Translations under genes and position numbers: made by a program
Assembly: GCA_012295275.1 (NCBI GenBank)
Contig: CM022668.1
Span: forward strand, 372,001 to 436,000
DNA from: Chrysomallon squamiferum
Lineage: Eukaryota; Animalia; Mollusca
Direction: 5' to 3'
DNA: 64,000 nucleotides
Shown here: piece by piece, positions 34,048-37,000 of the stretch
How the letters are laid out: the number at the start of each line of letters is the position of its first letter
Position numbering within the stretch: position 1 is the stretch's first letter
Notes under the pieces: generated by a model
What the model was told of the DNA's origin: nothing
The model's database searches: none
What the model saw: the letters and a program-made list of their open reading frames with translations, nothing else

Positions 34048-37000
34048 TCAAGTTATAAATATATTTCCTCCAAATGTAGGAACCTGAAATAGAAATAACT
34101 TAATTACCATCATGTAGCAGACACTAATCAAAATTTAACAATCTAATTATTTAATGTGTATGTATGTGTATTTGTTAGCGTTCTCTCTCTCTCTCTGTAT
34201 GTATGAACTGATTTTATTTTTTTTATTTATGAACTAATACAGACAACTAAGTTTAGTTTACAGATATCTCTAACGACAAACAGACATTTAATGTTTAAGT
34301 TACAGATATCTCTAACAATAAAAATATAAGTTAAAATACCTTTAACAATGTTTGCTCATTAGTGTTGCCACAGAAGTCAGAAGTTTAAAACAGTTATAAA
34401 TAGTAAATATATAAGTAAACAACTAAGTTTAGTTACAGATGTCACTAACAACTTTATCAGTTCAGTCATATACAACTGTAACAACTAAGTCACAGACAAC
34501 TGAGTTTAGTTACAGATATCTCTAACAACTAAGTCACAGACAACTGAGTTTAGTTACAGATATCTCTAACAACTAAGTCACAGACAACTGAGTTTAGTTA
34601 CAGATATCTCTAACAACTAAGTCACAGACAACTGAGTTTAGTTACAGATATCTCTAACAACAGTCACAGACAACTATGTTTAGTTACAGATATCTCTAAC
34701 AATAGTCACAGACAACTAAGTTTAGTTACAGATATCTCTAACAACTAAGTCACAGACAACTATGTTTAGTTACAGATATCAGACAACTAAGTTTAGTTAC
34801 AGATATCTCTAACAACAGTCACAGACAACTATGTTTAGTTACAGATATCTAACAACTAAGTCACAGACAACTGAGTTTAGTTACAGATATCTCTAACAAT
34901 AGTCACAAACAACTAAGTTTAGTTACAGATATCTCTAACAACTAAGTCACAGACAACTGAGTTTAGTTACAGATATCTCTAACAACAGTCACAGACAACT
35001 AAGTTTAGTTACAGATATCTCTAACAACCAAGTCACAGACAACTATGTTTAGTTACAGATAACTCTAACAACTAAGTCACAGACAACTATGTTTAGTTAC
35101 AGATATCTCTAACAACCAAGTCACAGACAACTATGTTTAGTTACAGATATCTCTAACAACAGTCACAGACAACTAAGTTTAGTTACAGATATCTCTAACA
35201 ACTAAGTCACAGACAACTAAGTTTAGTTACAGATATCTCTAACAACTAAGTCACAGACAACTAAGTTTAGTTACAGATATCTCTAACAACAGTCACAGAC
35301 AACTAAGTTTAGTTACAGATATCTCTAACAACAGTCACAGACAACTAAGTTTAGTTACAGATATCTCTAACAACTAAGTCACAGACAACTAAGTTTAGTT
35401 ACAGATATCTCTAACAACTGAGTCACATACAACTCTAAAAAAAACAAAAAGTCAGTAGCTCTTGAAATGTAATATGAAACTGGTTTTGAGCAAATGGTAA
35501 TGTCTGTTCTGAGTGAACTCATAACATGGTATTTTGAGTAATAGCTCAGAAACTACTTCAATGCTCATTAATATGAAACATTATTTTTACAATCTGAAAT
35601 ATAATGAATAGCAGTACCTGTAGGAAAATGGTATTTTGAGTAATATTTCATGTAGTAGATAAAGTACTATTTTTATTAACTCAGTAATTTACTATTAAAT
35701 AATATTCTGAGTAATGACTAAATTTTGGTTTGAGTAATGATAAACAGGATTTTGAACATCTGATAAAAAATAATTACTTGAATAACTGATAACCAGTATT
35801 TTGAGTATCTGATAATAGTATTTTGATTATCTAACAAATAGTATTTTGAGTAATTAATAAACAGTATATTGATTACCTGGTAGTATCTGTTTTGAGTAAC
35901 TGACAGTGCTATTTCAATGATTAATTAATAACATTTTGAGTAAGTGATAAACAGTATTTAATGTAACTCATAAACAATATTCTGAGTATCTGGTAACACT
36001 ATTTTGAGTTTTCTTACTTGAAAACTTACTGTGCTTGTCTGTTTATCATGATTAACATGCAACAAAGGCTGAAAAATAAATTAAAGTGATTTAAGTAAAT
36101 AAAAATATAAGTCTGTATGTATGAACTGAATTTATTTTTAACTATGATAATGATATATAGGTGTCTCTCTGTGTGTATGTATTGGTGTGTAAATGTTTAT
36201 TTACCAAAAAATGATTTAACAATTTGTAAACTGGAAAGTATCAGTAACAGTAAAATATGAATTAAAATACCTCAGATAATGTTTGCTCCTTAGTGTCACC
36301 ATCACAAGTCTGAAGTTTGAAATAGTTATAAAGTTAGTAAATGTAATATGTATATAAACAAAATAAAAGGGAATTATAGTACTTGTAGTATCTCTGTGTT
36401 TCTATGTATAAATCATTATATGTATATATACTATCATTGTTAGTTATCTATACAGTGGTCATTATTATTATTTTATATTAATAATCAACATTAAATCATT
36501 TTTATTATCACCAAACCATCCAAAGCAAACTTAAAAAAGAGAACAAAAAATTAAAAAAATAAAAAAAGAAAAGAAAAGAAAGAAAAAGAAAATGAAAAGA
36601 AAGAAGAAAGAACAAATTGCTCTAATACCTTATATATCAGTTTTTGGTTCTTTTCAGTTTGAACATACTGAGTTCCTCCATTGTTCACTATGTTGATCAC
36701 CTTCGTCTTACCTGAATAGCAAAATCAGAAGAGTTGTTAATTATATTTTCCTCTTAAATGAGAAGAAAAGAAAAATAACCTCCACATTTTCTCAATATCC
36801 TACAAATTAACAAAACTTTAGAATACTTGTATTTAAAAACCATATATTTTAGAATTTTTATGGGAACACTATATTTTCAGATATTTATTACTACAAATAA
36901 ATTTTATTTTATTTTAAATAATACAAAGAATATCCTGCTTGGTAAAGAAATTAATACAATGAGTCCTAATCTTTCACCCTGCATAAAAAAACCCATTATT

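Follow-up and report, generated by a model that had tools for sequence, protein, structure and literature searches.

The window, by which we mean the whole 64,000-nucleotide stretch of Chrysomallon squamiferum DNA analysed here (contig CM022668.1, positions 372,001 to 436,000), holds a tandem cluster of three TNF-receptor-like genes, A, B and C, all on the minus strand. When the window is compared with itself, A and C fall within segmental duplicates of ~21 kb that share long blocks of 85-99% identity, and B lies in between. By eye and by Kyte-Doolittle hydropathy, the gene models of all three have a type I layout with a signal peptide and a single transmembrane (TM) helix, and no death domain was found in their tails of 81-111 residues. 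The model of B comprises 10 predicted exons with GT-AG ends and an open frame of 329 aa (Table 1); a second in-frame ATG lies 12 nt upstream of its exon 1, and its exon-3 donor (GTTGTT behind GG in the DNA sequence) is weaker than the GTTTGT of A and C. Exons 1 and 2, with the cysteine-rich domains, are 97-98% identical among the three genes, in line with the near-identity claimed for them in the initial annotation, and the different TM segment that it ascribed to B is borne out as well, the TM exon of B matching those of A/C at 62 of 99 positions. In exon 7 the identity is 55-60 of 83.

Table 1. Positions in the window of the exons of B and of related features in A, B and C
Feature	Position	Strand	Description
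B exon 1	41836..42088	-	encodes the signal peptide and the first Cys-rich module; the N-terminus of the abalone homologues aligns here
B exon 2	41392..41691	-	TNFR-like cysteine-rich domains
B exon 3 (stalk)	40978..41032	-	weak predicted donor; gene model
B exon 4 (stalk)	40701..40726	-	gene model
B exon 5	40264..40362	-	transmembrane helix, with 63% identity to A/C; in X2 its 3' end is spliced to exon 7
B exon 6	38393..38452	-	basic juxtamembrane segment; in-frame inclusion or skipping
B exon 7	36629..36711	-	83 nt, phase 1 to 0; RHIM-like with core VQTE; exact spliced contig in X2
B exon 8	36271..36309	-	13 aa; identical across A, B and C
B exon 9	36030..36068	-	13 aa; a second, alternative donor lies 12 nt downstream
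B last coding exon	34048..34083	-	11 aa, then stop; B-type sequence joined to exon 9 in X3
Decayed exon-8-like module copy in B	34340..34378	-	acceptor AG lost, 1-nt deletion; skipped in RNA
A exon 7	13285..13394	-	core VQLG, 27-nt in-frame repeat expansion; gene A spans ~18560-5109
C exon 7	51721..51803	-	core VQLG; gene C spans ~56294-47588

A Pfam search with the ectodomain exons gave no match. A protein search of 1.84 billion representatives (E <= 0.001) returned 15 matches, from which P0001, a repeat protein, and P0002 and P0005, which match in many short stretches, were set aside; of seven matches looked up, five are named homologues, all of them molluscan (Haliotis twice, Ostrea, Babylonia and Potamilus). 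The best full-length relative has the same signal peptide, Cys pattern and TM layout, and the same likeness to B is seen in the Haliotis rufescens protein LOC124149535, with 36% identity over exon 2. A family profile of 16 sequences matches osteoprotegerin (OPG, TNFRSF11B) at E 4.6e-6, its sole match at E up to 10, and OPG and DcR3 chains are among the database matches to the ectodomain. Foldseek placed TNFR ectodomains in the top rows for two low-confidence models (B exon 2, pLDDT 66.5; an abalone protein, 50.9), every row having E > 0.001, and the Atlas leads were TNFR_c6 clusters at 0.85-0.86. Since Pfam is without a match while the profile, Foldseek and Atlas all point to TNFRs, the ectodomain is taken, on these sequence and model comparisons, as a divergent TNFR type. 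In protein the ectodomain of B is 91-92% identical to those of A/C, and 9 of its 184 codons encode residues private to B, among them an N-glycan sequon at residue 69, which neither A nor C has, so that a ligand common to B and A/C is something that we infer. The excess of amino-acid-changing differences between the ectodomains of B and C (15 vs 1) was not significant on its own (P 0.14).

Exon 7 holds the change in B to which the initial annotation drew attention. Read from the minus strand (36709-36629), it translates to 27 residues containing VQTE (core codons 36664-36653), and translation likewise confirms that exon 7 contains VQLG in A (13394-13285) and in C (51803-51721). Thr-Glu followed by Lys does replace the hydrophobic-Gly half of the core, as had been described, but the change is not confined to the core: 16 of the 27 residues differ from C and 12 from A, mostly after VQ. 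Both the hydrophobic third residue and the fourth-position Gly of the RHIM or cryptic RHIM (cRHIM) core are absent in B, which has an out-of-register VNNG upstream of VQTE. Nor does this stretch form the end of the tail; exon 7 is internal, the seventh of 10, and three exons follow it, adding 37 aa, or 41 with the alternative donor of exon 9. A scan of the B tail for TRAF, YxxPhi and RHIM-tetrad motifs gave no match. Two further candidates were considered and are not claimed: TRAF-binding sites in exon 8, a consensus match being absent from the tails of A, B and C, and a second RHIM in the last exon, whose PTFG..N does not fit VxxG and for which one of six comparisons with exon 7 beat the shuffles (124 of 5000), not significantly after correction.

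The tails of the paralogs also vary in their other modules. Exon 6 is duplicated in C (52609-52556 and 52165-52112), whereas in A (13858-13816) a single copy is complete and another survives as a truncated piece; RNA contigs also show an internal donor in exon 6. The last exon-8-like module of A (5513-5476, minus strand) is 38 nt long, and a 1-nt deletion in it brings a stop before the final exon, so that A has the tetrad without the terminal motif, B has the reverse and C has both. An RNA contig in run X1 bears this 38-nt form of A.

Transcripts were compared in contigs of four RNA runs of one study (X1-X4) over 35500-36990; exons 1-2 are present in part in five runs. One 115-nt contig of X2 agrees with B exon 7 at every base and continues, spliced, into exon 8. 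The loose end at the exon 7 acceptor consists of two junctions, one reaching back to B exon 5 and the other to B exon 6 (29 of 30 letters), so that exon 6 is included or skipped in frame. The VQTE exon is thus part of spliced mRNA, and the case that B is unexpressed, which had been named as one that would undo the decoy reading, is excluded. B exon 7 is spliced at both ends in one of the four runs and intact-core exons (VQLG/VQIG) in all four; contigs show presence only, and the fact that X1, X3 and X4 gave no B exon 7 is not counted as absence of the gene. Contig depths in X2 were 18.7 for the B exon 7 contig and 20.9 for an intact-core contig, although depth says little about expression level. 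A B exon 9 without mismatch is joined to the last exon in X2 (by 10 letters, which are not paralog-specific), and in X3 a B-type last exon is joined via the donor 12 nt further on. The junctions 5/6-7, 7-8, 8-9 and 9-last of B are therefore found piecewise, and, exon 8 being identical in all copies, the transcript pieces are unphased. The intact frame that had been claimed for B stands in the gene model, with RNA support that begins at exon 5 and comes in pieces.

Two further observations concern splicing in this region. B exon 7 starts with GTAAGA right behind the acceptor AG (36720-36700), which would regenerate a strong donor after splicing and which A and C lack; recursive skipping of the exon is not supported, exon 7 being included in X2 and no join of exon 6 to exon 8 appearing among the 18 of 21 loose ends listed. 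In X2, X3 and X4, exon 9 is followed by a spliced exon-8-like module of ~36 nt that is absent from the window, a sign of additional alleles or paralogs.

Any loss in B presupposes that the VQLG segment of A/C is a RHIM in the first place. The core tetrad (I/V)Q(I/V/L)G is present in both, and C has an I-x-I pair at -11 and -9; at the RIPK spacing (-8 and -6) only -8 (Val) is aliphatic, the loop of A/C being 3 residues longer than in RIPK1/3. A RHIM-like regular expression is found twice in the window, in A and C, which do not count as independent cases, and 13 of 30 resampled windows also contain one or more matches to it. The pattern alone is therefore weak, and what matters is that it lies in a cytoplasmic exon that is spliced and in frame. 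The initial annotation treated A and C as RHIM proteins; the tetrad pattern fits, but a Pfam search with the motif gave no RHIM match, a PDB search against solved RHIM chains had CD44 as its best hit (E 0.014), and a search of the protein collection gave none at E up to 10. If the segment were not a RHIM, nothing would have been lost in B, and exon 7 would be a hypervariable binding site of another kind. Although the missing matches, the chance rate of the expression and a spacing unlike RIPK1/3 would all be explained in this way, we regard it as quite unlikely: queries of 27-36 residues leave profile searches little power, and the core is conserved among the variants. All five non-B exon-7 contigs have L or I as third core residue and G as fourth, an interchange of L and I beside an invariant G, while five of the eight following residues vary. 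Moreover, a hydrophobic-x-I ... V-I-(L/V)-G motif is conserved in the tails of three of four abalone homologues (it is absent in three bivalve entries).

We consider the exon-7 motif of A/C RHIM-like, a candidate for the RHIM class, based on its tetrad, on how that tetrad is conserved across variants and on the abalone VxxG motif. With the RHIMs of RIPK1, RIPK3, ZBP1 and TRIF and the cRHIMs of PGRP-LC, Imd and shrimp SRB2, it shares a V/I-Q-V/I/L-G tetrad behind a putative hydrophobic-x-hydrophobic strand in a low-complexity tail, as well as a conserved core with fast-changing neighbours, a combination that PMC12119088 describes for RIPK3; its position in a receptor tail is as in PGRP-LC and SRB2. 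Unlike the known RHIMs, it would sit directly in a TNFR-like tail, with the longer loop and no profile match. The abalone tails resemble it by pattern in their conserved VxxG; they are longer, carry TRAF-type motifs and have a motif without Gln. As a separate observation, the uncharacterised TNFR-like Haliotis proteins P0004, P0023 and P0024 have a cRHIM-like VxxG tail motif, and two of the three also have a TRAF2/PxQxT-type match. RHIM proteins are known from invertebrates (PMC4262963), and the function of zebra-mussel RIPK1 is RHIM-dependent, which makes a RHIM partner for A/C plausible.

What VQTE would do can be judged from work on other RHIMs. A deep mutational scan (bioRxiv 10.64898/2026.02.19.706818) places the third core residue among the four aliphatic positions whose mutation most cuts nucleation, whereas many substitutions of the flanking glycines raise it, G461Y raising nucleation and yet losing function. 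The natural variant VQSG does not activate NF-kB and yet supports ZBP1-dependent death (PMC12119088), and the fourth glycine is invariant even in cRHIMs (PMC10268257). Because of the sensitivity of the third position, the NF-kB failure of VQSG and the invariance of the cRHIM glycine, B probably, by analogy, no longer gives normal RHIM output. Inability of B to nucleate is not established, since glycine substitutions can raise nucleation. The term RHIM-dead, applied to B in the initial annotation, hence fits the critical third position and the NF-kB-inactive VQSG, but sits less well with the death supported by VQSG and with the glycine changes that promote nucleation.

The divergence of B is concentrated in exons 5 and 7, which differ from A/C at 28-37% of positions, 2-3 times more than their flanks (12-16%). 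Exon 5 has 37 differences in 99 positions against 21 in 132 of flank (P 2e-4), and exon 7 has 28 in 83 between B and C against 16 in 138 of flank (P 1e-4) and 23 in 83 between B and A (P 0.003); the low divergence of the flanks may be a product of gene conversion. Selection on the two exons is suggested by these sequence comparisons, and only suggested because pN is close to pS in both (B vs C: 0.33 and 0.34 in exon 7, 0.39 and 0.38 in exon 5), as expected of neutral change. Exon 7 itself is uneven, with conservation over the 14 codons up to VQ (pN 0.09-0.11, pS 0.21-0.28) and none over the 10 that follow (pN 0.40-0.58). No frameshifting indel occurs in 428 aligned exon bases of B, where 8.6 would be expected (P ~2e-4) from the 18 in 896 flanking bases, an expectation that is overstated since the flanks are pyrimidine-rich; the decayed exon-8-like copy inside B, skipped in RNA, is a local example of loss.

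These figures bear on another reading, in which B would be just one gene among others of an immune array that evolves by birth and death, its tail under relaxed constraint and its transcription without a regulatory role. This is, in our judgement, unlikely. It would be consistent with the closeness of pN to pS, with the two truncated, slightly B-like remnants and the A-tail frameshift in the same window, with the finding of B exon 7 in one of four runs, and with the fact that VQTE is two amino-acid-changing point mutations away from the VQIG variant seen in RNA. However, frame and splice sites are intact across strongly diverged exons, the exons have diverged more than their flanks, and the TM segment has remained hydrophobic. 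Neutral evolution of B, which had been listed as a result that would speak against the decoy, is accordingly disfavoured by the kept frame, although pN close to pS leaves room for neutral decay.

Exon 7 is a hotspot of change between A and C too, with 10 differences in 83 positions vs 5 in 828 in three neighbouring introns (P 5e-8). Of these, 9.5 are amino-acid-changing and 0.5 silent, which alone is not significant (P 0.10). Five non-B contigs together with A and C, read by hand, give six distinct sequences over the last 30 nt of the exon, with 8 variable bases in 7 codons and no silent change; the non-B variants may be alleles or further paralogs. The paired-receptor system of the initial annotation is for this reason too tidy a picture, the family being larger than a pair of members and hypervariable in exon 7. 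The hotspot between A and C, with its mosaic RNA variants and the 27-nt expansion of A, is possibly more interesting than B itself.

Taken together, we tentatively favor the view, at somewhat less than an even chance, that B is an expressed paralog without RHIM output which attenuates signaling by A/C. It would build on what was directly observed of B, namely its gene structure, its open frame, its expression in one run, its TNFR-like ectodomain and the divergence concentrated in exons 5 and 7, and the near-identical outer domain combined with a changed membrane anchor and motif would make dampening of its siblings a likely role. In such a model, a TNF-family ligand would cluster A/C, upon which a RHIM partner, for example a molluscan RIPK1, would be recruited via VQ(L/I)G. 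Gene conversion would keep the ectodomain of B similar, so that B could bind the ligand of A/C or enter their clusters. Finally, the Thr-Glu-Lys core of B would be unable to template the partner, and sites held by B would yield little or no RHIM signal.

Alternatively, B could itself signal with a different output, binding the same or a similar ligand while its new TM and tail segment engages another partner or forms a different amyloid, a possibility to which we give limited but real weight. This would explain why the entire TM exon and the residues after VQ, well beyond the core, have changed, why the N-terminal half of the motif is conserved over 14 codons, and why exons 8 and 9 and the last exon are retained; it is also consistent with natural tetrad variants that can separate NF-kB from death outputs (PMC12119088). 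On the other hand, the scanned tail of B is without a TRAF, YxxPhi or RHIM-tetrad match, the fourth glycine that even cRHIMs keep is gone, and a second RHIM in the last exon is not supported. A more elaborate proposal, which we consider improbable, is that B is an endogenous fibril-capping receptor: its first strand and VQ would enter the fibril of A/C or RIPK1 and its Thr-Glu-Lys half would stop elongation, the molluscan TNFR-like proteins would signal by a RHIM of their own, and an arms race with pathogen RHIM decoys would drive the exon. The conserved first half of the B motif fits capping.

The attenuating role that we favor for B has counterparts in several known systems. The TRAIL decoy receptors DcR1 and DcR2 and the soluble OPG and DcR3 act as decoys. 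Like B, they are TNFR paralogs with a similar ectodomain and a disabled intracellular signaling element; they lose or truncate the death domain or the whole tail, whereas the lesion of B would be in a short RHIM-like motif of a family without a death domain. In Drosophila, rPGRP-LC and PGRP-LF are motif-less relatives of a cRHIM receptor that act as brakes on the IMD pathway (PMC9496462). Both are, like B, TM receptors related to a cRHIM-signaling receptor (PGRP-LF being a separate gene and rPGRP-LC sharing the ectodomain), but their motif is wholly lacking or replaced and their ectodomain is of the PGRP type, whereas B, a putative brake, keeps the first half of the motif and VQ under a TNFR-like ectodomain. 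Pirk and the viral decoys M45, ICP6 and ORF20 provide a precedent for RHIM-like sequences that interfere with a signaling amyloid; they carry a RHIM or cRHIM and are not receptors, whereas in B the third and fourth core residues are gone. More generally, gene duplication is known to produce inert copies that act as repressors of their sister genes (PMC2527136).

An incomplete coverage of the full-text literature, including PMC4262963, PMC12119088, PMC9496462, PMC10268257, PMC13506858 and bioRxiv 10.1101/2024.07.27.603686, brought up neither a TNFR whose own tail carries a RHIM nor a core-less paralog of one, and the homologue searches, in which pairs of VQLG and VQTE in related species were sought, gave no close relative. 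If A/C signal through a tail RHIM, a TNF receptor would feed directly into an amyloid switch without any death-domain adaptor in between, and B would be a natural, expressed loss-of-core control with which a decoy could be separated from capping. If, in contrast, the motif is something other than a RHIM, or if B evolves by drift, the locus would be an ordinary fast-evolving invertebrate immune array.

Several minor features of the window complete the description of the locus. Receptor remnants lie upstream of A (19560-20450) and of C (57250-58180); they consist of exons 3-4 with a damaged acceptor and no TM exon, and are slightly nearer in sequence to B than to A/C. Between A and B (21102-27042, plus strand), several open frames of 84-99 aa have a protein-like composition, with no Pfam match above cut-off. 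A 169-bp satellite of ~19 copies occupies 1-3403 and abuts a 200-N assembly gap. Lastly, related minisatellites are found in the same intron of each paralog (6394-12039, 34417-35441 and 48863-50541), with very unequal lengths and a unit of 24 bp in A and C and of 44 bp in B.
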